From positions 1 to 51,781 of the forward strand of contig RQOI01000640.1 of NCBI GenBank assembly GCA_003854995.1: a stretch of 51,781 nt of DNA, given 5' to 3'. The notes under the pieces are model-generated. The model was not told the DNA's origin. It searched no databases and was given only the letters and a program-made list of their open reading frames with translations. A program made the translations under genes and the position numbers. Source of the DNA: Candidatus Zhuqueibacterota bacterium. GTDB taxonomy: Bacteria; Zhuqueibacterota; Zhuqueibacteria; Residuimicrobiales; Krinioviventaceae. Below are positions 26,900-51,781 of the stretch, in pieces (the first letter of the stretch is position 1; each line of letters starts with the position of its first letter).

Positions 26900-27281
26900 C
26901 ATCCTCAATCTCCTTCGATATTTTATCAATTTCCCATATCAACTCAATCAGGCCAATCCCTTCTGGTTGCCCCTTTGAGGATTAAACAATTTTTGCAAAC
27001 TGTAACTGTCATTATCTGTTGCATCTCTGGCTATACACACTGTCCGTTTGCAGACAACCGTCAGCAAAGAAAAAGAGAATGCCGTTCAATCAGCTCATTT
27101 TAATGATTGCCTAAAAATTATATAAAACAATATTTTATCTCTATGCGGCCATGCAAAACCACTTTGCCCGGAGGGAGTGTATCTTTGGCATTCTTTATGC
27201 TAATGCGCTATTATACTCAGTTTCGTTTCATGGACAGTTGAAAATGTAATCGGAAATTCATGCTCGAAATGACAACCTTTT

Positions 27282-27845
27282 ATGCCAACTCCCATAGGAC
27301 ACATGCTCGCAGCGGCGATTTTATGCAAGTCACAAAGAAGCAGAGATGATTTTCTCTTTTACCTTTTTATCCTCTTTTTTGCTCTGTTGCCGGATTCTGA
27401 TTTTCTATTTGGCTTTTTTACTGGTGATCCGAATCGATATCATCATCTGTTTACGCACAGTTTTGCTTTTGTCGTCATTGCCGGACTCTTGGGCGGGGTC
27501 ATTTATGCAAAATGGCGGGATGAGAATATCATTTTTTCGTCCGCCATTTTCATCTCTGCTGGTATAAGTCATGTGATCCTGGATTGTCTGGCAGTGGACA
27601 GGAGAGAACCTTTTGGCTGTCCGATAGGATGGCCATTTTCACAGAAATTTGTCATTTCTCCGGTTCTGCTGTTTTCAGATGTAACTCGCAGCTCGGACTC
27701 GAGTCTGTTTTTTCCGAGCTTGTTCAATATGCACAATTTGCAGGCCGTTTCCATAGAGCTCTTTGTCTTGATGCCGGTCTTGTTCACAGTCTGGATGTTG
27801 CGCAAGTCTACTGGCTATAGAAAAACGGCGATATCAAAAATGTAA
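27282..27845 (+). CDS. YdjM-family (DUF457) membrane-bound metal-dependent hydrolase
   Basis: MPTPIGHMLAAAIL..., LLPDSDFL, HHLFTHSF and ISHVILDCL give the His/Asp motif set of the LexA-regulated YdjM inner-membrane hydrolase family. There are 4-5 hydrophobic segments. Confidence 0.65.
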   Translation: MPTPIGHMLAAAILCKSQRSRDDFLFYLFILFFALLPDSDFLFGFFTGDPNRYHHLFTHSFAFVVIAGLLGGVIYAKWRDENIIFSSAIFISAGISHVILDCLAVDRREPFGCPIGWPFSQKFVISPVLLFSDVTRSSDSSLFFPSLFNMHNLQAVSIELFVLMPVLFTVWMLRKSTGYRKTAISKM

Positions 27846-27868
27846 TTGTAACAGGCCTCTGACTTTCG

Positions 27869-28810
27869 ATGCAAGTGAAAAAGAAAGAAAAACCTTATCT
27901 CTCGGTCGTCGTGCCTTTCTTCAATGAAGAGGAGAGCATCGAACGGCTATGGCAGGTGTTGAAAAGCTCGTTGGACGAGTTCGGCCAGTCGTATGAAGTC
28001 ATCTTTGTCGATGATGGCAGCATGGATCGCACCCGCGACATCATGCGCCGTCTGGCCAGTGACCATCCGGAACTTTTGGTCATCCTGTTCCGGGCCAATT
28101 TTGGCCAGTCGGCCGCCATGGCAGCGGGCTTTGAAGCCAGCCGCGGCGATGTGGTCGTGGCCATAGATGGTGATTTGCAAAACGATCCTCGCGATATCCG
28201 CGCGATCGTCGACAAGCTCAACGAAGGCTATGACGTGGTCAGTGGCTGGAGGAAAAATCGCCAGGATAAAATGGTATCACGATTGCTGCCGTCCAAGATT
28301 GCCAATCACATCATCTGTTCGGTCACGGATGTCAAGCTGCACGACACCGGCTGTTCGCTCAAGGCCTTTCGCGGCGACTTGTTGCGACGTATTTCTCTCT
28401 ATGGTGAGCTGCATCGTTTCATACCGGCGCTGCTGCGCATGGAGGGCGCCCGGATCACTGAGATGGCTGTCCGGCATCATGCCCGGCGCTACGGCACATC
28501 CAAGTATAATTTGAGCCGCACCTTTCGCGTCATCATGGATTTGCTGACGATTCGACTGCTCATGCAGCATTTGCAAAATCCGCTCAGCTTTTTTGCCAAA
28601 TTTTCGATTCTGGCCGGAGCGGCCGGAACAGTGACATTTTTTCGCGCACTTGCGCAGATCGTCCTCAATAGGATTGACGTCGCGACCTTGAATATATCCA
28701 TCAGCATGACAGTGCTGCTCTGGGCCGCTTCTTTCATGTTCATGAGCCTGGGACTCGTCGGCAAAATGATTGTTGATAATGGCGAACGTCGTCCGTTCAG
28801 TTTGGAATAA
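27869..28810 (+). CDS. GT2 polyprenyl-phosphate glycosyltransferase (GtrB/ArnC/Ppm1-type lipid-linked monosaccharide synthase)
   Basis: LSVVVPFFNEEESI, VIFVDDGSMDRT, AIDGDLQNDPRDI (DXD), HDTGCSLKAFR, GELHRFIPAL and HHARRYGTSKY, plus two C-terminal TM helices. This is the canonical GtrB/ArnC architecture. Confidence 0.85.
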   Translation: MQVKKKEKPYLSVVVPFFNEEESIERLWQVLKSSLDEFGQSYEVIFVDDGSMDRTRDIMRRLASDHPELLVILFRANFGQSAAMAAGFEASRGDVVVAIDGDLQNDPRDIRAIVDKLNEGYDVVSGWRKNRQDKMVSRLLPSKIANHIICSVTDVKLHDTGCSLKAFRGDLLRRISLYGELHRFIPALLRMEGARITEMAVRHHARRYGTSKYNLSRTFRVIMDLLTIRLLMQHLQNPLSFFAKFSILAGAAGTVTFFRALAQIVLNRIDVATLNISISMTVLLWAASFMFMSLGLVGKMIVDNGERRPFSLE

Positions 28811-28824
28811 CAAAGGGATTTGAT

Positions 28825-29799
28825 ATGGCGCTGCCGCATACAAACGAAATAGATATTCACATGGCAAAAGCCAAACCTTTGGTTTCTGTCATTGTGGCGA
28901 TCAAGAATCAGAAGGAATATCTGGAACAGCTGAATTCTGATCTGCGACGCATGCAGGAGGATAGCGAGTCCTCTTTTGAAATCATTTATGTGGATGATGG
29001 CAGCACGGACAGCTCCTGGCGAATGCTGAAAGAGATCGGCGAAAAATCACCGAACACGCACCTCATCAAATTGCGTACAGCCTTTGGCGAGTCATCCGCG
29101 CTGGAAGCGGCAATGGAGTCAGCGCTGGGCGATTGGATCGTCTTTTACACCTCTCGCGTTCGCGTGAATGCTCGCGATCTGAGCCGTCTGGTCGACCGAC
29201 TGGCGCATGCTGACGTCGTTGTCGGTGCGCGTTTTCCACGGCGCGACTCGGGTCTCAATCAATTTGTTTCAAAGATATTCAATCGAATCACCAACAAGAT
29301 TGCAAAGCTCGATTTGCGCGACATCAATAGCGGCGTGTTCGCTGTGCGACGCGACGTGCTGGAGAGAGTGCCGTTTTATGGCGCACTCAACTCTTTTTTG
29401 CCGCTGCTGGCGAGCCGTCAGGGATACAAGGTGGTCGAAGAGCCGGTCGAGCAACTGCCTGGTAAATTTGATCAATCGCTCAAAGCCAAAGATTATGTTC
29501 GTCGATTTCTTGATTTGATCAGCGTCGTCTTTCTCAGCCGATATTCTAAAAAGCCGCTCCATTTTCTCGGTTTTGGCGGCGCTATCATGGCCGTTGTCGG
29601 CGCGGCGATCGATCTCTATCTGTTCATCTACCGCATTCTGGGTTTTGGCGGCATTGCCGGGCGCCCCATACTATTGCTGGGCACGGTCTGCCTGGTGATC
29701 GGCCTGCAGATGATCGCCATCGGCTTGCTGGGAGAAATGATCATTTTTACCCACGCCCGACAAATTAGAGAATATAACATTGAAGAAATAGTTGAATAA
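28825..29799 (+). CDS. GtrB-like GT2 paralog with degenerate catalytic motifs (DXD replaced); possible pseudo-glycosyltransferase
   Basis: Same length and topology as the upstream gene: VSVIVAIKN, IIYVDDGSTDSS, and a C-terminal TM hairpin ending GLLGEMIIF. The position aligned to AIDGDLQNDP reads FYTSRVRVNA. HDTGCSLKAFR becomes RDINSGVFAVRR and HHARRYGTSKY becomes QLPGKFDQSLKAKDY. An alternative start ATG is at 28861. Confidence 0.6.
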   Translation: MALPHTNEIDIHMAKAKPLVSVIVAIKNQKEYLEQLNSDLRRMQEDSESSFEIIYVDDGSTDSSWRMLKEIGEKSPNTHLIKLRTAFGESSALEAAMESALGDWIVFYTSRVRVNARDLSRLVDRLAHADVVVGARFPRRDSGLNQFVSKIFNRITNKIAKLDLRDINSGVFAVRRDVLERVPFYGALNSFLPLLASRQGYKVVEEPVEQLPGKFDQSLKAKDYVRRFLDLISVVFLSRYSKKPLHFLGFGGAIMAVVGAAIDLYLFIYRILGFGGIAGRPILLLGTVCLVIGLQMIAIGLLGEMIIFTHARQIREYNIEEIVE

Positions 29800-30757
29800 A
29801 AAATTGAAACTCATCATACAAATACCCTGTTACAACGAGGAGAAGACACTTCCTCTCACTTTTTCGGAATTGCCGCGTCAGATCAATGGCATTGATGAGA
29901 TCGAATATCTGATCATCAATGACGGCAGCGACGACCGGACCGTCGAAGTGGCGCGCGAACTTGGGATACATCATGTCATCAGTTTTCCCAAAAACAAGGG
30001 CCTGGCAAAAGGATTCATGGCAGGTCTCGATGCCTCTCTTCGGCTCGGCGCTGATATCATTGTCAACACAGATGCTGATAATCAATACGCGGGCGCCGAT
30101 ATTGAAAAGCTCGTTGAGCCGATTCTCAAAGGCGAGGCAGAGCTGGTTGTCGGTGATCGACAGACCAACGGCATTCATCATTTTTCGTGGTTCAAAAAAA
30201 GACTGCAAAGATGGGGAAGCTGGGTCGTTCGCCACGTATCGGATACTTCTGTCCCGGATGCCACCAGCGGATTCCGCGCCTTGTCGCGCGAAGCTGCACT
30301 GCAGATGAATGTCGTTTCCGAATTCACCTATACCCTGGAAACCATCATTCAAGCCGGGAAGAAGAACCTGGCCATCTCGCACGTCCCGATTCGCACCAAT
30401 GGCAAATTGCGTGAATCGAGGCTATTCCGCGGTAACTGGAGCTATATTAAACGTTCTATTGGCACCATCGCACGGATCTATACCATGTACGAGCCGCTGA
30501 GAATGTTCTCTTTTATTGGCGCCATACTCTTCGGCCTCGGCTTGCTCATCGGTCTTCGCTTTGTCTATTTTTATATCACCAGTGGCGGTGCCGGCCACAT
30601 TCAATCATTGATATTGACCGCTGTACTGCTCATCGTTGGTTTTCAAGTTTTTGTCTTTGGCCTGATGGCTGACATGATCGGCTCAAACAGGCGCCTCATC
30701 GAAGATGCGCTCTATAGATTGAAGAAAATGGAGCACTCGGGATCGTCGGGAAAGTGA
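29792..30757 (+). CDS. GT2 glycosyltransferase with C-terminal TM helices (second subtype of polyprenyl-phosphate glycosyltransferase)
   Basis: The TTG start overlaps the upstream stop (TTGAATAA). LIIQIPCYNEEKTL, LIINDGSDDRT, NKGLAKGF, VNTDADNQY (DXD), DATSGFRAL, then two TM helices (FIGAILFGLGLLIGL, LILTAVLLIVGFQVFVFGL). Confidence 0.8.
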   Translation: MNKKLKLIIQIPCYNEEKTLPLTFSELPRQINGIDEIEYLIINDGSDDRTVEVARELGIHHVISFPKNKGLAKGFMAGLDASLRLGADIIVNTDADNQYAGADIEKLVEPILKGEAELVVGDRQTNGIHHFSWFKKRLQRWGSWVVRHVSDTSVPDATSGFRALSREAALQMNVVSEFTYTLETIIQAGKKNLAISHVPIRTNGKLRESRLFRGNWSYIKRSIGTIARIYTMYEPLRMFSFIGAILFGLGLLIGLRFVYFYITSGGAGHIQSLILTAVLLIVGFQVFVFGLMADMIGSNRRLIEDALYRLKKMEHSGSSGK

Positions 30758-30764
30758 TACGCGG

Positions 30765-31826
30765 ATGAGGATTCTATACGTCGCTGGTCGAGAAGAGAGC
30801 TATTCCCGGACACGCATCGTCTATAAAGCGCTCAAAGCGCAGGGCTTTGATGTGATCGGTTGTTTCCCGCCGAATAAATCCTTTGCCCATTACCCGCGAC
30901 TGCTCTGGCGCGCCGTCCGTCTAGCGCGAAAGTGCGACGTCATCATCGTCGGTTTTTATGGACAGCTCATATTGCCGTTCATCAAACTATTGACCTGGAA
31001 GCCCATTCTGTTCGATATGTATATTGCCACATTCGACACAATGGTGAACGACCGCAAGGCAGCCGACGCCAGGAGCCTCAAGGCGCATTTCTATAAATGG
31101 AGTGATACGCTTGCCTGTCGGATGTCAAACCGGCTGGTGCTCGAGACAAATGATCACATTCGCGATTTTGCTGCAAAGTTTCACGTCGATCCGGCCAAGT
31201 TTCAGCGCATCTTTTTGGCAGCGGACGACAGCGCGATCTATCCGCGCCGCCTTGATAAAACGACAGGCGCGTTCCTCGTGCATTTTCACGGTGAATATGC
31301 GCCGTTCCACGGCGTCAAATACATTCTGCAGGCGGCGCATATACTGCGTCATGCGAATGTGCGCTTTCAGATCATTGGCAAGGGCATCACTTACGACGCT
31401 GATCTGCAACTCGCGCGCGAACTGGGGCTGACGAACGTCTCATTTATTGATCCCGTGCCTTATGAGGTGCTGGCGGATTATATGGCGCGCGCTGATGTCT
31501 GTCTGGGAATTTTTGGCGAGAATGATCGCATGCTGCGCGTTTTGACGAACAAGGTCATTGAATCCATCGGCATGCGAAAGCCGCTCATCACCGGCAGAAA
31601 TGAGCCGGTCCAGGAACTGCTCACGCATGGGCAGAGCGTCTATCTCGTCGAACGCGCCAATCCGAGGGCGCTGGCGGAAGCTATTATAATATTAAAGAGT
31701 GACCCGGATCTGCGTCACAAGATTGCAGAGGGCGGATACGATGCTTTCAGAAACCATTGCACGATGGAAAAGTTGGGTCAAGGATTTGCCACTATTCTGA
31801 GGACTATGAATTCAAATGGAAAATGA
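30765..31826 (+). CDS. GT-B fold glycosyltransferase (GT4-like)
   Basis: MRILYVAGRE at the N-terminus and a Rossmann-like C-terminal half with NKVIESIGMRKPLITGRNEPVQELLTHGQSVYLVE (EX7E-like region). Confidence 0.6.
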   Translation: MRILYVAGREESYSRTRIVYKALKAQGFDVIGCFPPNKSFAHYPRLLWRAVRLARKCDVIIVGFYGQLILPFIKLLTWKPILFDMYIATFDTMVNDRKAADARSLKAHFYKWSDTLACRMSNRLVLETNDHIRDFAAKFHVDPAKFQRIFLAADDSAIYPRRLDKTTGAFLVHFHGEYAPFHGVKYILQAAHILRHANVRFQIIGKGITYDADLQLARELGLTNVSFIDPVPYEVLADYMARADVCLGIFGENDRMLRVLTNKVIESIGMRKPLITGRNEPVQELLTHGQSVYLVERANPRALAEAIIILKSDPDLRHKIAEGGYDAFRNHCTMEKLGQGFATILRTMNSNGK

Positions 31827-32820
31827 ATCTGCAAAATTGAATGGCCGGCAGATACTGATCACCGGCGGCATGGGATTCATCGGCAGCAACCTGGCACATC
31901 GCCTGGTGCGGGAAGGCGCTCGGGTGACCATCTACGACGCTTGCCTTGATCCCTATGGTTGGAACTGGGCGAACCTCGACGGCATACGCGATGACGTGCA
32001 GGTCGTGATCGGTGATGTTCGGGATGAAGAGAAACTGGAGCACCATGCGCGTGGAAAAGATATTATTTTTCATCTCGCAGCGCAGGTGGGACGGGAGATC
32101 TCCATGGCCTCGCCGGAACTGGATGCCGATATCAATTGCATCGGCACGCTCAACCTCTGCAAAGTGCTGGCCAGAGGAGAGAGGCGCGCCAAGGTCGTCT
32201 ATGCCGGCAGTCGCGGCCAGATCGGCGAGCCGGTTTACCTGCCGGTGGATGAGGCGCATCCGACCGAGCCGACAGATGTCTATGGCATCAATAAACTGGC
32301 TGCTGAAAAGTACCTCCTTTTGTATGGGCACATTTTTAATTTTCCGGTTGTGTCCTTGCGGTTGAACAATGTCTATGGTCCTCGTTGTCAGATGGAGCAC
32401 GGTTTTTACGGCATTCTCAACTGGTTCATCCAGAACGCCATGACCGGCAGAGATATCACGGTCTATGGCGATGGCATGCAAACTCGCGACTATATCTATA
32501 TTGATGATGTTGTCGATGCCTTTGTTCGCGCCGGCTTGAGCTCGACCGCGAATGATGAGATCTTTTTCATCGGCTCCGGTGTGGAATCTCACTTTATCGA
32601 TATGGTCAGGCAAGTCATTGATGCCGTCGGTCGAGGCAATTATGTGCACATACCGTTTCCGCCGCAACGCGAGTGCATTGACATCCGCCGATTTGTCGCG
32701 ACATTTGCCAAGTTCAAGGGTGCGACTGGCTGGCAGCCTAAAATTGACCTGGCTGCCGGCGTCCGATATACCGTGGACTATTATCGCGATAAACTGGATC
32801 GCTATTTGAAAAAGAGCTGA
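31816..32820 (+). CDS. Extended-SDR NAD-dependent sugar epimerase/dehydratase
   Basis: ILITGGMGFIGSNLAHRL (GxxGxxG) and YGINKLAAE (YxxxK). It is 334 aa and overlaps the upstream gene by 11 nt. Confidence 0.85.
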   Translation: MENESAKLNGRQILITGGMGFIGSNLAHRLVREGARVTIYDACLDPYGWNWANLDGIRDDVQVVIGDVRDEEKLEHHARGKDIIFHLAAQVGREISMASPELDADINCIGTLNLCKVLARGERRAKVVYAGSRGQIGEPVYLPVDEAHPTEPTDVYGINKLAAEKYLLLYGHIFNFPVVSLRLNNVYGPRCQMEHGFYGILNWFIQNAMTGRDITVYGDGMQTRDYIYIDDVVDAFVRAGLSSTANDEIFFIGSGVESHFIDMVRQVIDAVGRGNYVHIPFPPQRECIDIRRFVATFAKFKGATGWQPKIDLAAGVRYTVDYYRDKLDRYLKKS

Positions 32821-32825
32821 ATCGA

Positions 32826-34112
32826 ATGAGCTTTGAACAACCGATAAATATTGGCTTTGTGCACAACGCGTATCCGGTCCTGTCGCAGACATTTATAAAG
32901 AAAGAGATGCTGGGATTGCAGGCGCTCGGACTGCCTCTGCGCATCTATTCATTATTTCGTCCTGAGGGCGGACAGTGCCAAGGACCCGACCATGTGACCT
33001 ACATCTTGCCGCATGCGCGCGCCGGCGCGCTTGTTTTGTCACATCTCTATTTTATCGTCACAGCGCCACGCCGCTATTGGCGCACTCTGCTCTTTGCCAT
33101 GAAAAGGCGTAGCCGCCGGATATCTTTTATCAAAACAGTCTTGTGTCTTTTGCGCCGGGAGGATGTGTCCAAAGCGCAACGGCAGGATCTGCTGCTCCAT
33201 TTTCTACTGGCTCCTGTGTTGGCAAAGAGGATGAAACGTGATAGCATCTCTTTCATCAACTCGCACTTTGCCGATGCAGCGGCGGCCTTTAGTCTATTGA
33301 CCGCTAAAATTCTGGGATTGCGCTTTGGCGTGACGACGCACGCCTATGATATTTTTACAGCGCCGGCAAACCTTTGCGAAAAACTGGAGGAGGCGCAATT
33401 CGTCCTGACATGTACCGCCTATAACAAGGCGGCGTTGCTCGATAAAGTCGATCTTGACGCTGACAAGATTCAGGTGCACTATCACGGTGTTGATACAGCA
33501 AAATTCAGACGCTCCGGCAGGCCAGTCAATACGACCGCTGAAATATTGTCAGTTGGGCGGCTGGTGCCGAAAAAAGGCTTTGACTTTCTCATTTCGGCTT
33601 GTGCTCAGCTGCGGGATGCAGGCGTAGAATTCATCTGCCGCATCATCGGTGATGGTCCATTGTTCAAAGATCTTGCGCGGTTGATAGACACAGCTTGTTT
33701 GCAGGAGCAGGTCGAGCTATTGGGTTCGCTTTCTCCGGAAAAGATCGTCGCTTACTATGAGAGAGCGGATATCTTTGCCTTGCCATGCGTGGTTTTGGCC
33801 GATGGCGATCGCGATGGCATCCCCAATGTCATCGCTGAGGCGATGGCGATGGAGCTGCCCGTGGTCTCTTCGGGAATATCCGGCATCCCGGAACTGGTAG
33901 TGGACGGAGTGACGGGCTATTTGAAAGAGCCAAAAGATGTCGCGGGCGTTGCCGCCGCTCTGGACCTGTTAGTGCGGAATCAAAGACTGCGAAACGAGAT
34001 GGGCGCGGCCGGTCGCCGCCGCGTGCAGGCTGTTTTCAACTCGGAAACTTGTCTGCAAAACCTGTATCATTTTTATGCGGCAGCGTTGAATGGCAGAGAT
34101 CAGTCGAGATGA
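32826..34112 (+). CDS. GT4 glycosyltransferase (WcaL-like)
   Basis: GRLVPKKGFDFLI and DGIPNVIAEAMAMELPVVSSGISGIPELVVDGVTGYL (EX7E motif region). Confidence 0.8.
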   Translation: MSFEQPINIGFVHNAYPVLSQTFIKKEMLGLQALGLPLRIYSLFRPEGGQCQGPDHVTYILPHARAGALVLSHLYFIVTAPRRYWRTLLFAMKRRSRRISFIKTVLCLLRREDVSKAQRQDLLLHFLLAPVLAKRMKRDSISFINSHFADAAAAFSLLTAKILGLRFGVTTHAYDIFTAPANLCEKLEEAQFVLTCTAYNKAALLDKVDLDADKIQVHYHGVDTAKFRRSGRPVNTTAEILSVGRLVPKKGFDFLISACAQLRDAGVEFICRIIGDGPLFKDLARLIDTACLQEQVELLGSLSPEKIVAYYERADIFALPCVVLADGDRDGIPNVIAEAMAMELPVVSSGISGIPELVVDGVTGYLKEPKDVAGVAAALDLLVRNQRLRNEMGAAGRRRVQAVFNSETCLQNLYHFYAAALNGRDQSR

Positions 34113-41055: not shown

Positions 41056-41060
41056 TATAC

Positions 41061-42869: not shown

Positions 42870-43180
42870 TGAACAAGCTCGTTCGGCTCATGCTGGTCCG
42901 GCACCCTCGCAAAGGCTGTTGAAGATGTGTGGCTTTATAATATATTGAAAATAATGAAAATAATTATGCTTCCGCTCCTTTGTTTTACGCCGGATGTTAT
43001 CTGATTCGAGATTCTTTCTGAAAAATATTTGAGCGGGCGCCAGGTGACGTGGAAAAATGGTTCTTGAGGGTATGGTACGATTGTTGTTCTGAAAAAGATT
43101 TGGCCGAGTCCTGCGTGGCAGCGGGGCAGCAGGCCAGAATTGCCCATCGATCTGAATAGTATGAAAATAAGAATGAAAGA

Positions 43181-44212: not shown

Positions 44213-44224
44213 AAATGATATAAG

Positions 44225-45571: not shown

Positions 45572-46985
45572 CTACACCGGCCTGCACCAGTTCATTGTCA
45601 TTGGATTGGCCTTCATCCTCGTGCCTGTGGCGACGCGACAGCTTGGCGCCAACGATTACGGCATCTATACGGTAGCAACCACGATCGGTTTTTTTGTGAG
45701 TCTGTTTGCGGATTTGGGCACTTCAACCATTCTGACTCGGGAAATTTCCAAGCGACCCAAACTGGCAGGAAAATTTTTCGCGCGCGTGCTCAGCATCAAA
45801 CTGCTCCTCACCGTCTTGGCCGTTGCCCTTCTGTTGATCTATTTGAGTCTCGCGAACTATACTGAGAAGCAAACGCATGTCATACTTGTTTTTTGCATCG
45901 CGGCTGTACTCGGCTCTTTTTCCACAGCGGCGTTCGGTGTGTTTCGCGGCGCAGAAAAAATGCAATACGAGGCCATCGGCGTCTCACTTGACAAATTCAT
46001 CTCCGTCATCATCGGCATCACAATTTTGCTATACGGTTTGGGAGTCGAGTATTTTATCTGGTCTTTTGTGGTCTCTAGCGTCATGCTGTTCATTTTTTCA
46101 TTTTGGACATTGTATCATAAATTTATCACCTTTGAGCTGAAATGGCATCAACGGCAGTCAAAGACGATTCTATACATTTCGATCTATCTCGGGATCTCTG
46201 CGTTCTTATCCATGGTCTATAATTATCAGGATATTTTGATGTTATCCAAAATGGGCACCATGCAGGATATCGGCTATTATTCTGCTGCCCATCGCGTGCT
46301 GATGGTGACGCGAATATTCCCGACGATCCTGGCCACGGCCTTTCTGCCGCAGCTTTCCGCGCATCATGCGGATAAAAACAGGCTCGCCGATTTTTTTTCT
46401 CAAGGCGTCAGCTATCTGTTTTTAATCATTTTTCCCTTGATACCCGCCACTGTTCTATTGGCTGATCCAATCATTCAATTTATTTGCGGCATCGACTTCA
46501 TCCCCGCAGCAGACGCCCTGCGAATTCTCGCCTTTGCTGTGACAGCACAAATAATGAACATATTTTTTGTGCCCCTCTATGTCGCCACAAATAACGAAAA
46601 AAAGATCGTTCACTTTCAGATTATCGGCCTCATCGTCAATGTCGTCTTGAATGTGCTTCTCATACCACTTTTGTCATTCAACGGCGCTGCACTGGCGACA
46701 GTGGCGACCGAAGCCATAATCTTTATTTTCATCTATTCGTGGATTCGACACAAAATCGGCGTCCGTCTGTTTCCGCCGGCGATGTTTGGCTTGAAAGTCC
46801 TGCTCAACACACTGCTCATGATGACAGTCGTTTTTTTCGCCTACGCAGCTCATTTTCATATACTGGTGATCGTCATGGCCGGCGTCATCACTTTTGCCCT
46901 CGCGCTGGAATTGACAAATACCTTGAAATTCAGCCGCTTTTTTCGAATGGCGCGTGAGCTCGCCGGGCGAGCCGCTGTGAATTGA
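45546..46985 (+). CDS. wzx: Second Wzx-type flippase (MOP superfamily, Polysacc_synt/Polysacc_synt_C-like)
   Basis: ORF 45447..46985 trimmed to MKQLYKNISYTGLHQFIVIGLAFILVPVATRQLGANDYGIYTVA (ATG at 45546). It overlaps the end of the Wzy-like gene by 26 nt. It has about 14 TM segments. Confidence 0.8.
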   Translation: MKQLYKNISYTGLHQFIVIGLAFILVPVATRQLGANDYGIYTVATTIGFFVSLFADLGTSTILTREISKRPKLAGKFFARVLSIKLLLTVLAVALLLIYLSLANYTEKQTHVILVFCIAAVLGSFSTAAFGVFRGAEKMQYEAIGVSLDKFISVIIGITILLYGLGVEYFIWSFVVSSVMLFIFSFWTLYHKFITFELKWHQRQSKTILYISIYLGISAFLSMVYNYQDILMLSKMGTMQDIGYYSAAHRVLMVTRIFPTILATAFLPQLSAHHADKNRLADFFSQGVSYLFLIIFPLIPATVLLADPIIQFICGIDFIPAADALRILAFAVTAQIMNIFFVPLYVATNNEKKIVHFQIIGLIVNVVLNVLLIPLLSFNGAALATVATEAIIFIFIYSWIRHKIGVRLFPPAMFGLKVLLNTLLMMTVVFFAYAAHFHILVIVMAGVITFALALELTNTLKFSRFFRMARELAGRAAVN

Positions 46986-47020
46986 TCGGGGCGCCGACAA
47001 GCCATGTCTCAAGAAAAACG

Positions 47021-47812
47021 ATGAGGAAATGTGTGACAGAAGAAGAAAAAATACTAAAGTTGCGCGACTTTTACGAGCGCGAGAGCGCGCTCGTAACCTC
47101 ACCCTTCATCGATGATAAGCTGCAATTGAATCGCGACCTGTTCAAACAGGTCAGCCGTTCTTTGAGTATGTCATTCAATGGCAAGATAGTGCTCGACATC
47201 GGATGTGGTTCGGGCTTACTCGCTGCATTTTTCCATGATCACAAATTCTATGTCGGAATGGATCTCAACGTGCGTGACAGTTTCAAGATCATGCGGGACG
47301 AATCACATCATTATGCACAGGCGAACGCCCTGCAGTTGCCGGTTGCCGACAACAGCATCGACGTGGCCATTTGTATGGACAGTTTTGAACATTTTCCGGA
47401 TCAACCGACAGCTGCAAAAGAGATCAAGCGCGTCTTGAAACCGGGTGGCTTTGTCTTTTTATCAACCCCGAATTACGCCAACATCGCCGGCATCGTCAAA
47501 TCCTGCTGCGAAACCTTTGGTCGTTATGAAAAGAATACCTGGGCGCCGTTTGACTACTGGAGGGCTGAAGAGCTGGAGCACTTTATGACGCCGCGGCGCC
47601 TGCGCCAGGTATTCGGCAGTGCAGGATTCAGCACATTTGCGCGCATCGGATTCGATCGCGAAGTTGTCGTCGGATTGTTCCCGTGGGTGTGGCATCCCAA
47701 AATGCCCGGCATCGTTGCCAGCGCCCTTTCGAAAGGCATGTCAGTGGTGGCAAAGCCAATTTGCCGGGTATGGCCGGAGAGCAGCCTGCATACCTTCTGG
47801 CGTATCGAGTGA
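47021..47812 (+). CDS. Class I SAM-dependent methyltransferase
   Basis: Motif I VLDIGCGSGLLAAFF, the post-I acidic residue in VGMDLN, and LKPGGFVFLSTPN. I prefer the ATG at 47021 over the TTG at 46982. Confidence 0.8.
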   Translation: MRKCVTEEEKILKLRDFYERESALVTSPFIDDKLQLNRDLFKQVSRSLSMSFNGKIVLDIGCGSGLLAAFFHDHKFYVGMDLNVRDSFKIMRDESHHYAQANALQLPVADNSIDVAICMDSFEHFPDQPTAAKEIKRVLKPGGFVFLSTPNYANIAGIVKSCCETFGRYEKNTWAPFDYWRAEELEHFMTPRRLRQVFGSAGFSTFARIGFDREVVVGLFPWVWHPKMPGIVASALSKGMSVVAKPICRVWPESSLHTFWRIE

Positions 47813-47913
47813 CCTGAGGAGAGAAGAGAGCAGCGAGTCTGCGACAGGATCGAACATGCTGCCATGCGAAAAGCGAAATTTGTCCCTGCTTGCGCCCGCT
47901 CGTTCATTTGCTT

Positions 47914-49113
47914 ATGAAATTCAGTTATCTCAATTATATGGCCGACCTCTATGGCTATTCCATTGGTTCGACGATCAAGGCGTTGAAGCTTTTGCATAAT
48001 CTCGAACTCTTTGGCCATGCAGTTGCGTTTCACTGGCTCGGCGGGGATCGCCCGCATGCATCGACAGCCGCACCGGCCAATTCCTCTGCGCGATCATTCT
48101 TTCGTGACCTGTTTTTCACGCCTGGCCAGCTTTTACGAAATGTGCGGCAGTTTTTCCGTGAACAACAATTGATCAAACAGGATCATCCGGATGCGCTGAT
48201 TGTGAGATTGGATGCATTTCGACTGTCCGCACTCTGGCTCGCTCGCCTGTATCGTTTACCACTAATTGTCGAGGCGGATGGCGCCTGTTCTTACGAATGG
48301 CTCACCTTCAATAACGGCCGCCATTTGTGGGATTCTGCGCTGCTTTGGTGTGAGAGATTAATGCTCAAGGGCGCGAACGGCATTTTCACCCAATCGAAAA
48401 TCGCCAAAGACTATTACACAAAAATGCACGGTCTTGATCCGGATAGCATTACTGTCATTACAAACGGCGCCGATCCATATCCCGACATCGAAGCGGGGAC
48501 GTCTGTCCGGGCCAGGCTCGGCATCTCGCAGGATGCGCAGGTCATTGGCTTTATTGGATCCATGCAGCGATGGCATGGGCTGCAGGATATGCGCAGTCTT
48601 GTCGACGATCTTCTTGCCAGTGACAAAAATGTTCTGTTTTTATTTGTCGGCAGCGGTGGCGCGCTGGAAAAAGAGCTGCGTGAGAGCCTGCAGCATGGCG
48701 GCCGCCGCATCATCTTCACCGGCGCGGTGCCGAACGATCAGGTGGCCGCCTATGTGCGCGCTTTCACCATCGCGGTGGCGCCTTATCCGCCCATCGACCT
48801 GTTCTACTTTTCGCCGATGAAGATATTCGAGTACATGTCCGCCGGGGTGCCGATCGTCGCATCCAGGAGTGGCCAGATATCAGATATTCTCCGCGACGGC
48901 GAGAGCGCCCTCTTGTATGAACCGGGAGATTACGCGCAGTTGAAGACGGCCCTCATTCGACTGGTCAGAGATGTCGACCTGCGGACGCGAATTGCGGATA
49001 ATGCTCGTGCACTATTCGGCAGAGAGCATACATGGCAGCACAAGGCGAAGGAACTGGACGATTTCCTGAGCCACTGCCTGCATATGAAAGATGAACCGGA
49101 GAGAAAAGTATGA
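47914..49113 (+). CDS. GT4 glycosyltransferase
   Basis: ATG at 47914 (MKFSYLNYMADLYGYSIG). C-terminal region FSPMKIFEYMSAGVPIVASRSGQISDILRDGESALLYEPGD. Confidence 0.8.
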   Translation: MKFSYLNYMADLYGYSIGSTIKALKLLHNLELFGHAVAFHWLGGDRPHASTAAPANSSARSFFRDLFFTPGQLLRNVRQFFREQQLIKQDHPDALIVRLDAFRLSALWLARLYRLPLIVEADGACSYEWLTFNNGRHLWDSALLWCERLMLKGANGIFTQSKIAKDYYTKMHGLDPDSITVITNGADPYPDIEAGTSVRARLGISQDAQVIGFIGSMQRWHGLQDMRSLVDDLLASDKNVLFLFVGSGGALEKELRESLQHGGRRIIFTGAVPNDQVAAYVRAFTIAVAPYPPIDLFYFSPMKIFEYMSAGVPIVASRSGQISDILRDGESALLYEPGDYAQLKTALIRLVRDVDLRTRIADNARALFGREHTWQHKAKELDDFLSHCLHMKDEPERKV

Positions 49114-50222
49114 AAATCAAGGTGCTGCAGCTTGTAGAGGGATTTAATTTTGGCGGGGCGGAGACCAAGCTGCTCGAACTGGTCAAGCATATGGATGACG
49201 ACCGGTTTGAAACGACGGTCATCAGCCTTGGCCTCGGCAATGAAATCGAGGAGCTGTTTCATCAACTTGACTGTCGGGTGATGACCTTCCAGAGGCAAAA
49301 GCAGGTGGATTTCAGCCTGCTGCGCCGCGTCCGCAATTTTATCCGCGACGAACGCATCGATATTGTCATGACGACGCTTTTTTACGCCGATGTCCTGGGC
49401 GCCCTGGCCGGTCATAGCAGCGGCGCCAAGGGTGTGTTCTCATGGGAGACGATCTCGTCACCCAAGTGGCTTACGCCGCACCGCCTCTGGTCATATCGTT
49501 ATGCCATTCGCAATGCGGACAGGGTCATTTCTGTTTCAAAAGCCACTGCGGAATGGCTGGTGGAAAAACGCAAGGTGGCGGCAGATAAGGTCATGATCAT
49601 CCCGTATGGCGTCAATCTCGACAAGTTCAATCCGCATATTAAATCCATCCAAAGAAAAGATATTGGTCTGCAAGAGGACGATATTATCGTCGGTCAAGTT
49701 TCTCGCCTCGATGAGCAAAAGGGCCACACCTTTCTGATCAATGCTGCGCCAATCATCATTGCGCAACAGCCACGCGTGAAATTTGTCCTCGTCGGTGACG
49801 GCCCGCTGCGATTAGAGCTGATGCATAAAATTGATCAGATGGGCTTGCACGACTATTTCATTTTTCTTGGATTCCGACGCGATGTGCCCGATTTGCTGCC
49901 GCTATTTGATCTGTTCGTGCTGCCGTCGCTGTACGAAGGCCTCCCCAATGTCGTCCTCGAAGCCATGGCTTGCGGATTGCCAGTTGTCGCGACGCCCGTC
50001 GATGGCACGAAAGAGGCGGTCGTGGATGGCCAAACAGGCATTCTGGTTCCCGTTGGTGATCCATATCGGCTCGCGAACAGTATTCTCAGTGTCATCAGCA
50101 ATGAGCAGCTAAAAAAGCGGCTGGGCATGAAGGGTCGACGTCGCGTTGAAGACGAGTTCTCGCTGGATGACCAGGTTAATAGATTTGAATGTCTGTACGA
50201 GGCGTATGCATTCCGAAACTAA
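49110..50222 (+). CDS. GT4 glycosyltransferase
   Basis: ATGA overlap with the upstream gene. MKIKVLQLVEGFNFGGAE, SRLDEQKGHTFLI and YEGLPNVVLEAMACGLPVVATPVDGTKEAVVDGQTGILVP. Confidence 0.85.
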   Translation: MKIKVLQLVEGFNFGGAETKLLELVKHMDDDRFETTVISLGLGNEIEELFHQLDCRVMTFQRQKQVDFSLLRRVRNFIRDERIDIVMTTLFYADVLGALAGHSSGAKGVFSWETISSPKWLTPHRLWSYRYAIRNADRVISVSKATAEWLVEKRKVAADKVMIIPYGVNLDKFNPHIKSIQRKDIGLQEDDIIVGQVSRLDEQKGHTFLINAAPIIIAQQPRVKFVLVGDGPLRLELMHKIDQMGLHDYFIFLGFRRDVPDLLPLFDLFVLPSLYEGLPNVVLEAMACGLPVVATPVDGTKEAVVDGQTGILVPVGDPYRLANSILSVISNEQLKKRLGMKGRRRVEDEFSLDDQVNRFECLYEAYAFRN

Positions 50223-50231
50223 AGATGGCAT

Positions 50232-51512
50232 ATGAAAATTTTAATGGTTCACAAGTTCTATTATGTCGAGGGTGGCGCAGAGCGATACGTCTTTAACGTG
50301 ACCGATCTGATGAAAGAAAAAGGACACACCGTCATTCCTTTTGCCATGCGCGATGACAGAAATTTCAGCTCTGATTATAGCCGCTTTTTTGCCGATCCGT
50401 TTGGCCCGGAACAGCTGTTTGCCACCCATGATCCGTTCAAACGCCTGCGCATTGCCAGGGATGTGATATTCAATCGGCATGCCCAGGCGAGGCTGGCCAG
50501 CTTGATCGAAGAGACAAAGCCGGACATCGCACACGTCCATTCTGTCTATCACCATTTATCGCCTTCGGTTCTATTCACTCTGAAAAAGTACAATCTGCCT
50601 GTGATGCTCACGCTGCATGACTACAAGATCGTCTGTCCCAACTATATTTTTCTCGACGGCGCTCGCCAGGTTTGCGAGGAGTGTCGTGGCAGACATTTCT
50701 GGAAGGCGACGGCGAAAAAATGTTTCCGCAACTCTTACGCTGCCAGCGCCCTGGTGACCGCCGAAGCCTATTGGAATTATTGGAAAAAGAGCTATCTCAA
50801 GAACGTCGATCTGTTTGTCTCACCCAGCCGCTTCCTGGCCGACAAGGTCTGCCAGTATGGCTATCAAAAAAAACATGTCAAGGTTCAACCCTATACGCTG
50901 GACCTCCGCCTGTACGAACCTTGCCATGCGGCGTCCGACTATTTCGTCTTCATGGGCCGTCTCACCCACGAGAAAGGCGTTCATTTTCTGCTCGATGCGG
51001 CGAAGAAAATCCGCGGCGCAGATTTGCTCATTCTGGGCGCCGGGCCCATCGAAAACGAATTGCGACAACGCGTGCTGAAAGAAAATCTACGGCATGTGAA
51101 AATGGTCGGCTATCAATCCGGTGCTGCATTGCGCGACCTGGTTCGTCAGGCCAAATTTACGGTCGTCACTTCTGAATGGTACGACAATTCGCCGCTCGTC
51201 ATCTATGAATCATTAGCTCTTGGCAATCCAGTCATCGCAGCCCGCATGGGAGGCATCCCCGAGCTCATCGAAGAAGGCCTTGACGGCTTTGTCTACGATC
51301 GAGGCGATCTCGAATCATTTGTCGCATTCGCCAACTATCTCATTCAAAATCCGAAAAGGGCGAGAGAGATGGGCATCAATGCCCGCCAGAAAGCAGAGCG
51401 TTTGTACGGCTTTGACCAACATTATGAAAAGCTGCTTGATCTTTATAACCATACCAGCGCCGTTGCCAGCAAGAACTCTCGCTTGCCCAAGGACGACTTA
51501 CCTTTACGCTAA
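50232..51512 (+). CDS. GT4 glycosyltransferase
   Basis: MKILMVHKFYYVEGGAERYVF, GRLTHEKGVHFLL and WYDNSPLVIYESLALGNPVIAARMGGIPELIEEGLDGFVY. Confidence 0.85.
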   Translation: MKILMVHKFYYVEGGAERYVFNVTDLMKEKGHTVIPFAMRDDRNFSSDYSRFFADPFGPEQLFATHDPFKRLRIARDVIFNRHAQARLASLIEETKPDIAHVHSVYHHLSPSVLFTLKKYNLPVMLTLHDYKIVCPNYIFLDGARQVCEECRGRHFWKATAKKCFRNSYAASALVTAEAYWNYWKKSYLKNVDLFVSPSRFLADKVCQYGYQKKHVKVQPYTLDLRLYEPCHAASDYFVFMGRLTHEKGVHFLLDAAKKIRGADLLILGAGPIENELRQRVLKENLRHVKMVGYQSGAALRDLVRQAKFTVVTSEWYDNSPLVIYESLALGNPVIAARMGGIPELIEEGLDGFVYDRGDLESFVAFANYLIQNPKRAREMGINARQKAERLYGFDQHYEKLLDLYNHTSAVASKNSRLPKDDLPLR

Positions 51513-51781
51513 ACAAATTTCCTCGTATCTCCTTTCGATATTTTTCATCCCGAATAGCCAAAGTCACAGTTGACCGCCTCACCTCATCGCTGGAATAAAA
51601 ACATATACCTGTGGCACAGTGTTTGTCCTATTAGGCCAGAAATAGATAAATGTCTATGGAAATTAAGCAGTTAACTCATTCTATCAAAAGCTGAAATTAT
51701 ACCAGCATGAAACATAACTCGTCAGTTGTTTTTTGCTGAGACAAAAGATTATAATTGGAGGTTGGACGCCATGAAGGTGAA

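Follow-up and report, generated by a model that had tools for sequence, protein, structure and literature searches.

A conserved two-block locus of twenty predicted envelope-glycan assembly genes in the uncultured bacterial phylum Zhuqueibacterota (KSB1)

The bacterial phylum KSB1, recently named Zhuqueibacterota, is a member of the Fibrobacteres-Chlorobi-Bacteroidetes (FCB) superphylum (PMC11683472). In this study, a 51,781-nucleotide stretch of a Zhuqueibacterota genome (contig RQOI01000640.1 of assembly GCA_003854995.1, hereafter the window) was analyzed, focusing on a 24-kb stretch at positions 27282-51512 that encodes a dense series of predicted glycosyltransferases (GTs), lipid-linked oligosaccharide flippases and accessory enzymes. 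The open reading frames (ORFs) of this locus are labelled g01 to g20 in 5' to 3' order on the + strand. Families were assigned with Pfam at curated cut-offs, and NCBIfam, sequence searches against the PDB, AlphaFold models compared by Foldseek, and hhalign were used in addition. Loci and contigs of relatives that were compared with the window carry the labels L002 to L017.

ORF listing and translation revealed 20 intact ORFs, all on the + strand and densely packed, with adjacent genes spaced -11 to +23 nt apart at all but three places. These are a 311-bp gap between g13 and g14 (42870-43180), a 77-bp gap 5' of g18, and a nominal 125-nt overlap of g15 and g16 that shrinks to 26 nt if g16 begins at ATG 45546, as called on a Logan contig. 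Overlaps of stop and start codons are visible in the sequence (ATGA at 34109, 36797, 38281 and 49110; TTGAATAA at 29792). A preliminary description of this DNA, made from the sequence alone, had reported 20 co-directional, tightly packed genes with these overlaps, and the ORF listing and the sequence agree with it on both counts. All 20 products score over the curated Pfam cut-offs, which confirms the families it had proposed for them, and its count of 13 glycosyltransferases spanning three folds (seven GT4, three GT2 and three GT-C) stands. It had described the GT2 genes as interleaved with the other genes; they form instead a tandem triplet at the 5' end of the locus. The same description had treated the genes as one supercluster. 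The 20 genes do lie together, and they fall into two blocks, A (g01-g13) and B (g14-g20), split by a conserved intergenic region (42870-43180, + strand), so that the locus is not one seamless operon. Paralogues within the locus are deeply diverged (by BLASTP, 22-30% identity among the GT2 enzymes, 22% between the two Wzx flippases, and no match of the GT-C enzymes to one another), and their multiplicity therefore does not reflect recent duplication.

Block A opens with g01 (27282-27845), which encodes a small polytopic membrane protein of the YdjM family (187 aa, about four transmembrane (TM) segments; PF04307, 60 bits). This conserved first gene sits directly 5' of the GT2 triplet in the window and in L015, L016 and L017. 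By family, its product is a putative membrane metal-dependent hydrolase, and it may act as a hydrolase on polyprenyl-linked intermediates or have an accessory role. An identification of YdjM as a known hydrolase of undecaprenyl-phosphate sugars was considered and rejected; of the characterized enzymes, UshA and UpsH, one is an alpha/beta hydrolase and the other a metallophosphoesterase, neither being a YdjM protein, and the comparison is one of analogy only.

The three GT2 enzymes are predicted to be of the polyprenyl-phosphate-sugar-synthase type. GT2a (g02, 27869-28810; Pfam Glycos_transf_2) is ArnC-like with a C-terminal TM region, and it aligns over its full length with the PDB structures of ArnC (9bhc, E 6.7e-44) and GtrB (5ekp, E 1.7e-29). 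It matches the NCBIfam ArnC model at E 1.6e-51 (175 bits, under the 529-bit equivalog cut-off) and the PgfS model at E 7e-43, and its homologues in relatives are 60-83% identical. GT2b (g03, 28825-29799; Glycos_transf_2) is of the ArnC/GtrB type, matching ArnC (9hwj) at E 2.1e-28 over residues 19-323. GT2c (g04, 29792-30757; Glycos_transf_2), which starts at a TTG overlapping the g03 stop, is DPMS/AglJ-like; it matches DPMS (5mlz, E 2.4e-16) and ArnC (E 2.8e-13), and its best family match is NCBIfam AglJ (E 9.5e-36, 124 bits against a 325-bit cut-off). A hydropathy scan with a simple threshold placed two C-terminal hydrophobic segments in g03 (residues 250-268 and 282-300), two in g04 (240-258 and 273-291) and one in g02. 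The best solved structures for g02-g04 are ArnC, the Synechocystis GtrB homologue sll0501 and Pyrococcus DPMS, and the alignments span the C-terminal membrane region, so that all three enzymes show the GtrB/ArnC/DPMS architecture of a catalytic domain followed by a C-terminal TM hairpin. Structures of soluble or processive GT2 enzymes match just the first ~100-130 residues. The polyprenyl-phosphate type had been proposed in the preliminary description with soluble-acceptor or processive synthases as the alternative, and the full-length ArnC/GtrB/DPMS alignments remove that alternative. ArnC, PgfS and AglJ are the top NCBIfam models for the three enzymes, and because every score lies far under the equivalog cut-off, the transferred sugars cannot be named.

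The triplet is followed by GT4a (g05, 30765-31826; GT-B fold, Pfam Glyco_trans_1_4 and Glycos_transf_1), by an extended short-chain dehydrogenase/reductase (SDR) that is a predicted NAD-dependent sugar-nucleotide epimerase/dehydratase (g06, 31816-32820; Pfam Epimerase, E 6.5e-47), and by GT4b (g07, 32826-34112; Glycos_transf_1, E 2.1e-37; NCBIfam EpsE-like, E 1.8e-51). The SDR matches the NCBIfam LegB, RmlB and GalE models, all under cut-off. It is the only sugar-nucleotide enzyme within the locus, in line with the near-absence of NDP-sugar synthesis genes reported in the preliminary description.

The next two genes overlap by 11 nt and encode a predicted carbohydrate de-N-acetylase of the YdjC family (g08, 34109-34924, its start overlapping g07 and its end g09; Pfam YdjC, 193 bits) and the 628-aa GT-Ca (g09, 34914-36800). 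The best PDB match of g08 is the chitooligosaccharide deacetylase 7vi8 (E 3.9e-26). The GT-Ca protein scores 69 bits against PMT_2 and gave an AlphaFold2 model of pLDDT 89.3 and pTM 0.91, for which Foldseek placed two ArnT structures, 5f15 and 5ezm, on top of the PDB matches (E 7e-9, prob 1.0; TM-score 0.5-0.58, identity 14-15%), followed by archaeal, bacterial and eukaryotic oligosaccharyltransferases (OSTs; PglB), and then by ALG enzymes, AftB, EmbA/B and Pmt4. The model carries a C-terminal periplasmic alpha/beta domain. Past TM1, g09 has the motif N41-P-D43-E44 (NPDEG), which is conserved in its family alignment of 49 homologues. No NCBIfam model matched g09, and PDB sequence searches with g09, g12 and g15 returned no matches.

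Two further GT-C enzymes close block A. GT-Cb (g12, 39379-41055; 558 aa, about 10 or more TM segments) is the sole GT-C of the locus to match Pfam PMT besides PMT_2 (41.9 and 57.6 bits, respectively). It has the motif H-P-D-E-T past TM1, and hhalign aligned it to the g09 family profile (prob 96.4%, E 1.4e-9) with this motif placed onto the conserved N-P-D-E-G; on these profile matches g12 is a GT-C enzyme. GT-Cc (g13, 41061-42869; PMT_2, 41 bits) was modelled at pLDDT 89.6 as a TM block (residues 1-264), a beta-sandwich domain (272-442) and a second TM block (460-574). Foldseek matched it best to the yeast Pmt1-Pmt2 complex (chain 6p25_B, E 5.3e-7) and to Pmt4 (9i5l, E 1.8e-5), and the layout of TM block, luminal domain and TM block is common to g13 and the PMTs. 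The g13 insert is a beta-sandwich with weak matches to carbohydrate-binding module (CBM) and GH16-like folds, and PMTs hold a MIR beta-trefoil at the equivalent position. The luminal MIR domain that PMTs carry between TM7 and TM8 is thus present neither in g13 (beta-sandwich) nor in g09 (C-terminal alpha/beta domain). The acidic residues past TM1 of g13, D39-T40 with D44, are conserved in its alignment of 39 homologues; the PMT-type Asp-Glu motif of loop 1 is D43-E44 in g09 and D-E in g12. The g13 and g09 family profiles align with each other at prob 98% in hhalign. By their models (prob 1.0), g09 and g13 are GT-C enzymes, and with the Pfam and hhalign results for g12 all three polytopic proteins show a GT-C fold with an acidic first-loop motif, as the preliminary description had predicted from the letters. 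The beta-sandwich of g13, about 170 aa, was confidently modelled, and full-length g13 homologues are found almost only in KSB1.

NaxD, of the YdjC superfamily, deacetylates undecaprenyl-phosphate-GalNAc prior to GT-C transfer in the modification of lipid A with galactosamine (PMC11279074), and the Bordetella lgmABC locus has the equivalent step for glucosamine (PMC4993483). YdjC also adjoins GT-Ca in L016 and L017. By analogy with these systems, the g08-g09 overlap and its conservation point to one module in which a polyprenyl-phosphate N-acetylhexosamine (HexNAc) would be de-N-acetylated before transfer. The pairing of an ArnC/FlmF2-type GT2 with a deacetylase is present at family level only (g02 and g08), and both proteins are under the equivalog cut-offs.

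Between GT-Ca and GT-Cb lie WzxA (g10, 36797-38284), a flippase of the multidrug/oligosaccharidyl-lipid/polysaccharide (MOP) superfamily and of the WzxC/TuaB type (Polysacc_synt_3, E 4.7e-84; NCBIfam NF007773, 304 bits, over the cut-off of 273), and GT4c (g11, 38281-39378), which combines a DUF1972 N-domain with Glyco_trans_1_4. GT4c is Cps2T/WchF-like (NCBIfam Cps2T, E 4.7e-50, under cut-off) and is 68-90% identical in relatives. Characterized Cps2T/WchF relatives transfer rhamnose, as the second sugar, onto a primer sugar linked to lipid. Block B comprises GT4d (g14, 43181-44212; Glycos_transf_1), a 448-aa polytopic protein of the Wzy_C family (g15, 44225-45571; Wzy_C, 74.7 bits; about eight or more TM segments), a second MOP flippase, WzxB, of the Polysacc_synt/MurJ-like type (g16, 45447-46985; Polysacc_synt, E 8.8e-32), a class I methyltransferase dependent on S-adenosylmethionine (SAM) (g17, 46982-47812; Methyltransf_23/11/25), GT4e (g18, 47890-49113; Glyco_trans_1_4 and Glyco_transf_4), GT4f (g19, 49110-50222; Glycos_transf_1, E 2e-41) and the final gene of the locus, GT4g (g20, 50232-51512; Glycos_transf_1, E 1.2e-30). 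WzxA and WzxB thus both qualify as Wzx flippases, by NF007773 and by Polysacc_synt, respectively. Three starts are probably downstream of those listed, at ATG 45546 for g16 (479 aa in the Logan-contig call), ATG 47021 for g17 (263 aa in that call) and ATG 47914 for g18. The Wzy_C family includes WaaL ligases and PglL O-oligosaccharyltransferases (PMC3643930), and the family membership of g15 is compatible with a role as polymerase, as WaaL-type ligase or as PglL-type O-oligosaccharyltransferase.

The preliminary description had seen no priming phosphoglycosyltransferase (PGT), no Wzz, Wzc or Wza and no GtrA or ArnE/F, and its absences hold among the window ORFs scanned with Pfam. There, no priming enzyme was found of either the Bac_transf (WbaP/PglC) or the Glycos_transf_4 (WecA/MraY) type, nor was a priming PGT found in the 10-kb flanks read in relatives; the priming enzyme could be encoded elsewhere in the genome. 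Wzz/Wzc and Wza families were absent from these ORFs and from the examined flanks of relatives. Small flippases of the GtrA and ArnE/F types were also absent from the scanned ORFs, which include the two MOP flippases, and from the 10-kb flanks read in relatives, and the Pfam scan of the window found no DUF2304 gene, so that the window lacks a GT2 + DUF2304 initiator pair.

The gene order of the locus recurs in KSB1 contigs at 34-92% protein identity. In the common order, block A reads YdjM, GT2, GT2, GT2, GT4, SDR or GT2, GT4, YdjC, GT-Ca, Wzx, DUF1972-GT4, GT-Cb and GT-Cc, and block B, after a gap of about 320-345 bp, reads GT4, Wzy_C, Wzx, methyltransferase and three GT4 genes. It is kept in GCA_016929295.1 (72-92% identity), on a 67-kb contig (54-85%) and on a 247-kb JGI contig, a 6.5-Mb contig and a 950-kb contig, on the last of which GT-Ca is 34% identical. 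Wherever both blocks are visible (L002, L003/L004, the JGI contig, L014, L017 and L011), they are adjacent and in the same order. In the deepest comparison, the GT2 triplet, the DUF1972 GT4 and WzxA are best kept (50-70%), and the GT-C and YdjC proteins keep 30-46%; at the distance of L016 and L017 from the window, where GT-C and YdjC proteins retain 30-46% identity, the GT2 synthases retain 57-70%. On these identities, the donors seem to be fixed while the outward-facing transferases drift. The preliminary description had asked whether the three GT2, three GT-C and two Wzx genes are conserved as a unit in related metagenome-assembled genomes (MAGs); the unit is conserved, and the count is not fixed, since relatives carry further GT2 genes (some with DUF2304) and further PMT_2 genes. 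A strain-variable O-antigen island is rejected because synteny is kept across deep divergence, and since the gene order holds down to about 34% protein identity, the locus probably encodes a surface structure that is core to the phylum and not an antigen varying between strains.

Relatives differ from the window mainly by inserted genes. A four-gene insert separates YdjC from GT-Ca in L002 (5500-9958), L003 and the JGI contig; it encodes a 534-546-aa protein with no Pfam match, a 239-aa GT2 without a TM hairpin, an SDR that is the second of the locus, and a DegT aminotransferase. This insert is missing from the window, L016 and L017, where YdjC adjoins GT-Ca (34924/34914 in the window). A reading of the 534-aa protein as a fourth GT-C was unsupported (hhalign prob 8.7%). 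Pairs of a GT2 of about 248 aa and a DUF2304 protein, in the GacI/GacJ or WpsA/WpsB arrangement of Gram-positive cocci, lie inside the locus in L017 (14451-15200 and 18658-20287), L014 (8891-10014) and the JGI contig. Further inserts include a radical-SAM gene, GHL15/Golvesin_C proteins, a sulfatase/LtaS-like protein, MBOAT with DUF1574, and more PMT_2 genes, and GT-C genes also occur within block B of some relatives (L009). Block B appears as a hotspot of accessory genes, with GHL15/Golvesin_C between the methyltransferase and GT4e, an arylsulfotransferase, a sulfatase/LtaS-like membrane enzyme and extra PMT_2 genes (accessory loci at L005:5258-7555, L009:23-1990, L011:6625-8682 and L014:16576-18651; L005:11266-13636; L009:2251-4356); an MBOAT + DUF1574 O-acylation pair lies 3' of the g20 homologue in one relative. 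A looser version of the locus, with a GT2-GtrA fusion, was found in a Thermodesulfobacteriota MAG. MAGs labelled 'uncultured Cytophagia bacterium' (L006, L012 and L013) carry block B at 55-79% identity to the window locus, and their label is probably a taxonomic mis-assignment of KSB1-related bins.

The locus is bordered on both sides by genes for type IX secretion system (T9SS) cargo. Upstream, two genes whose products carry Por_Secre_tail C-terminal domains by Pfam (23841-26841, + strand) precede it, and the same pair lies 5' of YdjM in the closest relative, L015. Directly 3' of the cargo stop codon is a stem-loop (26858-26900, + strand) with a near-perfect 18-bp stem and no U-tract (-27.9 kcal/mol, z = -4.9, none of 200 shuffles as stable), likely a terminator or boundary element, and a 380-bp non-coding leader separates it from g01. 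Downstream, the window ends 269 bp beyond g20 and 10 nt into an ORF (51772-51781). An alignment pairs the final 80 bases of the window with the leader and the start codon that a giant adhesin gene has in L005 (MKVNLSS...; the L005 start reads ...GGAGGTTGGACGCCATGAAGGTGA), and ATG 51772 is thus the start of the same adhesin gene. Its leader and start (51612-51781, + strand), with a promoter-like motif at 51612-51626, a ribosome-binding site and the ATG, are truncated by the contig end; the gene is context of the locus and not a proven part of it. To extend the contig past 51781, as had been proposed, the exact g20 protein was looked up, and the sole other contig, Logan SRR13394437_630725, stops at the same place, so that the downstream sequence is supplied by relatives. 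The giant gene lies 3' of the locus in 4/4 relatives with downstream sequence (L005:13854-21239, L008:11609-15916, L009:13845-19799 and L011:11407-19623), with MBOAT and DUF1574 intervening in one. The homologues measure 2738 aa (L011), 1984 aa (L009), >2462 aa (L005) and >1436 aa (L008); they contain Big_1/Invasin_D3 immunoglobulin (Ig)-like repeats, and both complete copies (L009 and L011) end in a Por_Secre_tail C-terminal domain. The adhesin repeats are also the probable cause of breaks in several independent assemblies, which end at or shortly past the g20 homologue.

A sigma-54-like -24/-12 motif, TGGYAC-N5-TTGY, occurs three times in the window, always on the + strand, against 0.35 expected (pattern count). 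The sites lie 5' of g14 (43073-43087, TGGTAC-N5-TTGT), 5' of the adhesin gene (51612-51626) and at the start of the first upstream T9SS-cargo ORF (23866-23880). In relatives, the g13/g14 gap measures 323-345 bp, and the motif is conserved at two of these sites, the gap (GGGTATGGTACGATTGTTGTTCT in L002 and L012) and the adhesin leader (L005). A sigma-70 scan found a 10/12 promoter-like site upstream of g01 (27185-27214) and a weak one in the g13/g14 gap, and the promoter/terminator scan gave no convincing internal terminators. Judged from these motifs, block B may be co-regulated with the T9SS cargo genes and block A transcribed separately.

Even GC content along the window and flanks of conserved chromosomal genes (GcvP and DHH) gave little ground for considering a phage, plasmid or other mobile origin. 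An Rfam scan of the whole window returned nothing. Further upstream, positions 1947-18140 hold a glycan-degradation cluster unrelated to the locus, with a GH29 alpha-L-fucosidase, an MFS transporter, a UxaE-like epimerase, DUF4380, apiosidase-like/DUF5060, GH97 and a 1026-aa GH106-like rhamnosidase, together with three small ORFs and one 401-aa ORF without a Pfam match. A DegT/DnrJ/EryC1 aminotransferase ORF on the - strand (484-1965, 493 aa), with a TTG start and an N-terminus about 100 residues over the usual, lies far from the locus and is not obviously related to the DegT gene inside the locus of relatives.

Taken together, these data lead us to favour, with moderate confidence, a locus in which an envelope glycan is made by GT4, Wzx and Wzy_C proteins and is then glycosylated in the periplasm by three polyprenyl-phosphate-sugar/GT-C modules, one of them with a NaxD-like de-N-acetylation. 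The folds, families, motifs, gene order and conservation are observed, and most steps of the mechanism are drawn from family membership and gene context. The seven GT4 enzymes would build one or more lipid-linked oligosaccharides on a polyprenyl carrier at the cytoplasmic face, with the DUF1972 Cps2T/WchF-like g11 probably acting second in the chain and the SDR and the methyltransferase supporting the assembly. The two different MOP/Wzx flippases would carry the lipid-linked intermediates across the membrane, and the Wzy_C protein would polymerize or ligate the product. In parallel, the three ArnC/GtrB/DPMS-type GT2 enzymes would load polyprenyl phosphate with three different monosaccharides, and one HexNAc donor would be de-N-acetylated on the lipid by the NaxD-like YdjC enzyme. 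After flipping, the three GT-C enzymes (the ArnT-like one, the PMT-family one and the PMT-like one with the beta-sandwich) would attach these sugars to the glycan on the periplasmic side of the membrane; for one or more of the GT-C modules, the acceptor may instead be lipid A/core or protein. Because the locus is conserved across the phylum, the product is expected to be a core envelope structure, and we think it reasonably probable that this is a heteroglycan, linked to lipopolysaccharide (LPS) or otherwise anchored, with three periplasmically added substituents. An LPS acceptor would be available, as KSB1 genomes contain lpx genes (PMC9012183). The preliminary description had suggested decoration of a Wzx/Wzy glycan, perhaps coupled to lipid A or protein glycosylation; this is still the most reasonable reading, and it goes beyond what the sequence states directly.

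Several points weigh against this account. The Wzx/Wzy system is incomplete as seen, since neither the window nor the 10-kb flanks read in relatives contain a PGT, a chain-length regulator, an outer-membrane polysaccharide export (OPX) protein or a clear WaaL, and no small flippase of the GtrA or ArnE/F type is present. A role of WzxA in flipping polyprenyl-phosphate monosaccharides would be a guess, because the closest models, WzxC and TuaB, flip oligosaccharides linked to undecaprenyl diphosphate. The conserved 311-bp gap with its own promoter-like motif parts the two blocks, and two different products are possible. Strong synteny across the phylum is also unlike typical hypervariable O-antigen loci. 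We know of no biochemical or glycan-structure data for any KSB1 organism.

Known pathways share parts of this layout. In Streptococcus pyogenes, the group A carbohydrate (GAC) pathway uses a Wzx-family flippase of the GacK type, and in streptococcal systems a DUF1972-type GT4 acts early on the lipid-linked primer. The streptococcal Gac (GacI/GacJ/GacK/GacL) and Scc loci resemble the KSB1 locus in pairing GT2 undecaprenyl-phosphate-sugar synthases with GT-C enzymes inside a polysaccharide locus, with more than one pair in S. mutans, whose serotype c carbohydrate (SCC) locus holds two GT2/GT-C pairs, SccN/M and SccP/Q, that decorate one polymer (PMC11754754); the GacI/GacJ-like GT2 + DUF2304 pairs of KSB1 relatives add to the likeness. 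In contrast, KSB1 is an FCB diderm whose backbone system is of the Wzx/Wzy_C type, where streptococci use an ABC transporter; its locus has the YdjM-led GT2 triplet, YdjC and PMT_2-family GT-C enzymes (one with an internal beta-sandwich), and the window has no LCP ligase or GroP transferase. The Lactococcus lactis cwps locus contains a GT2 initiator, a Wzx flippase and two GT-C enzymes, and in the synthesis of its pellicle a GT2 makes C55-P-GlcNAc, cytoplasmic GTs and Wzx follow, one GT-C polymerizes and another ligates (PMC9574508). The shared elements are thus a C55-P GT2, cytoplasmic GTs, Wzx and two GT-C enzymes, with a second chain made without a classical PGT (PMC9574508). However, WpsA requires the DUF2304 partner WpsB, of which the window has none, the acceptor in L. 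lactis is the peptidoglycan-linked rhamnan of a monoderm, no Wzy_C or YdjC is described there, and orthology with the KSB1 locus goes no deeper than family membership.

Lipid A hexosamine and Ara4N modules (FlmF2-NaxD-FlmK of Francisella, LgmABC of Bordetella and ArnC-ArnD-ArnEF-ArnT of enterobacteria) have family-level counterparts in the ArnC-like g02, the YdjC-superfamily deacetylase and g09, whose best structural match is ArnT. Those modules are small and dedicated, whereas the KSB1 genes lie within a 20-gene locus with two more GT2/GT-C sets, seven GT4 enzymes, two Wzx and Wzy_C, and without ArnE/F. In H. volcanii (Haloferax volcanii), the Agl pathway of N-glycosylation has GT2 polyprenyl-phosphate-hexose synthases in two roles, AglJ for initiation and AglD for donor synthesis, together with a Wzx-like flippase (AglR), a GT-C that adds the final sugar outside (AglS) and a SAM methyltransferase (AglP). 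AglJ is the best family match of g04, a similarity at family level only; the Agl pathway is archaeal, uses a dolichol carrier and targets S-layer protein through the OST AglB, and no STT3/AglB-type OST is found here. The actinobacterial Ppm1/Pmt and Emb/Aft networks likewise use several GT-C enzymes fed by polyprenyl-phosphate monosaccharides to build and decorate a lineage-wide envelope glycan, and g13 has a PMT-like layout while Emb and AftB are among the structural matches of g09; their donors (polyprenyl-phosphomannose, PPM, and decaprenyl-phosphoarabinose, DPA) and GT-C families differ, Wzx/Wzy is absent, and the genes are dispersed or otherwise organized. Gtr systems (GtrA/GtrB/GtrC, for glucosylation) and the Citrobacter youngae GT136 pentofuranose system decorate Wzx/Wzy- or ABC-made O-antigen in the periplasm after assembly by means of a polyprenyl-phosphate sugar from a GT2-type synthase, a flippase and a GT-C. 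Gtr modules differ from the KSB1 locus in being usually phage-borne single modules with GtrA, and GtrC and GT136 are GT-C families other than PMT_2. The C. youngae genes are embedded in an O-antigen locus with a MATE/MOP-type flippase and a CBM-bearing GT-C, as in other such three-component systems within Gram-negative O-antigen loci (PMC11127046); the donor synthase there uses phosphoribosyl pyrophosphate (PRPP), and the KSB1 locus comprises three modules as a conserved chromosomal core feature. The statement in the preliminary description that GT2 plus GT-C logic occurs as single, separate modules is therefore out of date, given the S. mutans SCC locus, the L. lactis cwps locus and the embedded O-antigen systems.

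The missing priming enzyme may be explained by an assembly primed by GT2 enzymes, which the preliminary description had not considered. One or more GT2 initiators would make a polyprenyl-monophosphate sugar that the block A GT4 enzymes elongate and WzxA flips, a course we regard as rather unlikely; similarly doubtful is its last step, in which GT-C enzymes would polymerize the chain and/or transfer it en bloc onto the block B chain or another acceptor, as in the L. lactis WpsA-J or archaeal AglJ pathways. Such priming would explain why no WbaP/WecA-type enzyme is seen in the window or in the flanks of relatives and why block A, with three GT4 enzymes and a Wzx of its own, is without a Wzy. The GT2 triplet opens the locus and contains its most conserved genes (57-92% identity), g04 has as its best family match a dolichyl-phosphate-hexose initiator, AglJ, and GT2 + DUF2304 pairs like GacI/GacJ or WpsA/WpsB lie in the locus of relatives. 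Characterized DUF1972 GT4 enzymes of the Cps2T/WchF type, however, use diphosphate-linked primers, and the window has no DUF2304 partner. WecA-like priming enzymes are often encoded elsewhere in diderm genomes, which makes their absence weak evidence, and an initiator and a donor synthase look alike at the sequence level. The mechanism itself is documented in L. lactis, with the GT-C polymerase WpsI and the GT-C ligase WpsJ (PMC9574508). Alternatively, the two blocks could be independent neighbours, with block A serving one glycoconjugate (e.g., LPS core/lipid A modification of the Arn, Flm-NaxD or Lgm type plus a short oligosaccharide) and block B an ordinary Wzx/Wzy cluster. The 311-bp gap of conserved position with its conserved promoter-like motif would fit this arrangement, as would the presence of one Wzx per block at 22% identity, the content of block B, which alone is that of a standard Wzy-dependent cluster, and the combination of GT2a, YdjC and the ArnT-like GT-Ca, which reproduces the Francisella/Bordetella lipid A hexosamine module. 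Yet every relative showing both blocks has them side by side in an unchanged order, genomes at 34-40% identity included, which argues for functional coupling, and GT-C genes lie inside block B in some relatives (L009); we judge independent neighbours improbable.

The cargo genes on both sides raise the question of protein O-glycosylation, in which PMT-like GT-C enzymes and/or a PglL-type Wzy_C protein would modify T9SS cargo including the giant Ig-repeat adhesin. All three GT-C enzymes are PMT_2/GT39-like and g13 is structurally nearest to Pmt1-Pmt2 and Pmt4, PglL O-oligosaccharyltransferases are Wzy_C proteins often encoded beside their targets (PMC3643930), and PgfS/PgfM1 provide a streptococcal GT2 + GT-C precedent (PMC12041528) whose PgfS model is matched by g02. 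Two cargo genes lie 5' of the locus, the giant adhesin gene follows it in 4/4 relatives with downstream sequence, and block B and the adhesin gene have a sigma-54-like motif in common at their 5' sides. However, T9SS cargo genes are numerous in FCB genomes and the adjacency may be retained synteny, the beta-sandwich (CBM-like) that replaces MIR in g13 fits a glycan acceptor equally, and g09 is nearest to ArnT, whose acceptor is lipid A. Disordered regions rich in Ser/Thr were absent from the giant proteins, and the Bacteroidota motif D(S/T)(A/I/L/V/M/T) was not strikingly enriched in them; in the neighbouring T9SS proteins, Ser plus Thr make up 12-16% with no Ser/Thr-rich stretches, and D[ST][AILVMT] occurs 0.3-0.8 times per 100 aa, values that are uninformative on glycosylation. 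On balance, glycosylation of the cargo appears quite unlikely. GT2 priming, independent blocks and cargo glycosylation are partly compatible with one another. In their boldest combination, the locus would be a phylum-wide surface-glycoprotein machine in which ArnC/AglJ-like GT2 enzymes replace the priming PGT, GT4 enzymes extend polyprenyl-monophosphate oligosaccharides, Wzx flips them, and PMT-like GT-C and/or PglL-like Wzy_C proteins attach and complete them on the co-regulated giant T9SS adhesin and further T9SS cargo, a proposal to which we give very little credence.

Prior descriptions of this locus were not found in the KSB1/Zhuqueibacterota genome papers. To our knowledge, KSB1 has no cultured member, and knowledge of its envelope is limited to its having lpx genes. 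Polysaccharide loci with embedded multicomponent transmembrane glycosylation, multiple GT2/GT-C pairs included, are already known. What is new is the combination of a YdjM-led tandem triplet of highly conserved GT2 enzymes, a NaxD-like YdjC step, and two Wzx with Wzy_C; the presence of three GT-C enzymes from the PMT_2 family, of which one bears a beta-sandwich insert where PMTs have MIR; and the conservation of the whole set as a unit in an uncultured diderm phylum, beside T9SS cargo genes.

Multicomponent transmembrane glycosylation has been known mainly from Gram-positive cocci, mycobacteria and phage-borne Gtr operons, and here a diderm FCB bacterium has it in triplicate within a Wzx/Wzy-type locus. 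The locus offers new enzyme material in its three conserved polyprenyl-phosphate-sugar synthases, its NaxD-like deacetylase and its PMT-like GT-C with the beta-sandwich insert, and it is a test case for GT2-primed, PGT-independent glycan assembly in bacteria. It also indicates a possible link between envelope glycans and T9SS cargo outside Bacteroidota. Current concepts are not overturned, and a conceptual surprise would follow only if the GT2-priming or the T9SS-glycoprotein reading were true. In the latter case, the glycoprotein machine would give diderm bacteria a counterpart to the Agl glycosylation of archaea and the PMT glycosylation of eukaryotes, and it would be a candidate answer to the question of how FCB bacteria outside Bacteroidota glycosylate or anchor their T9SS cargo.

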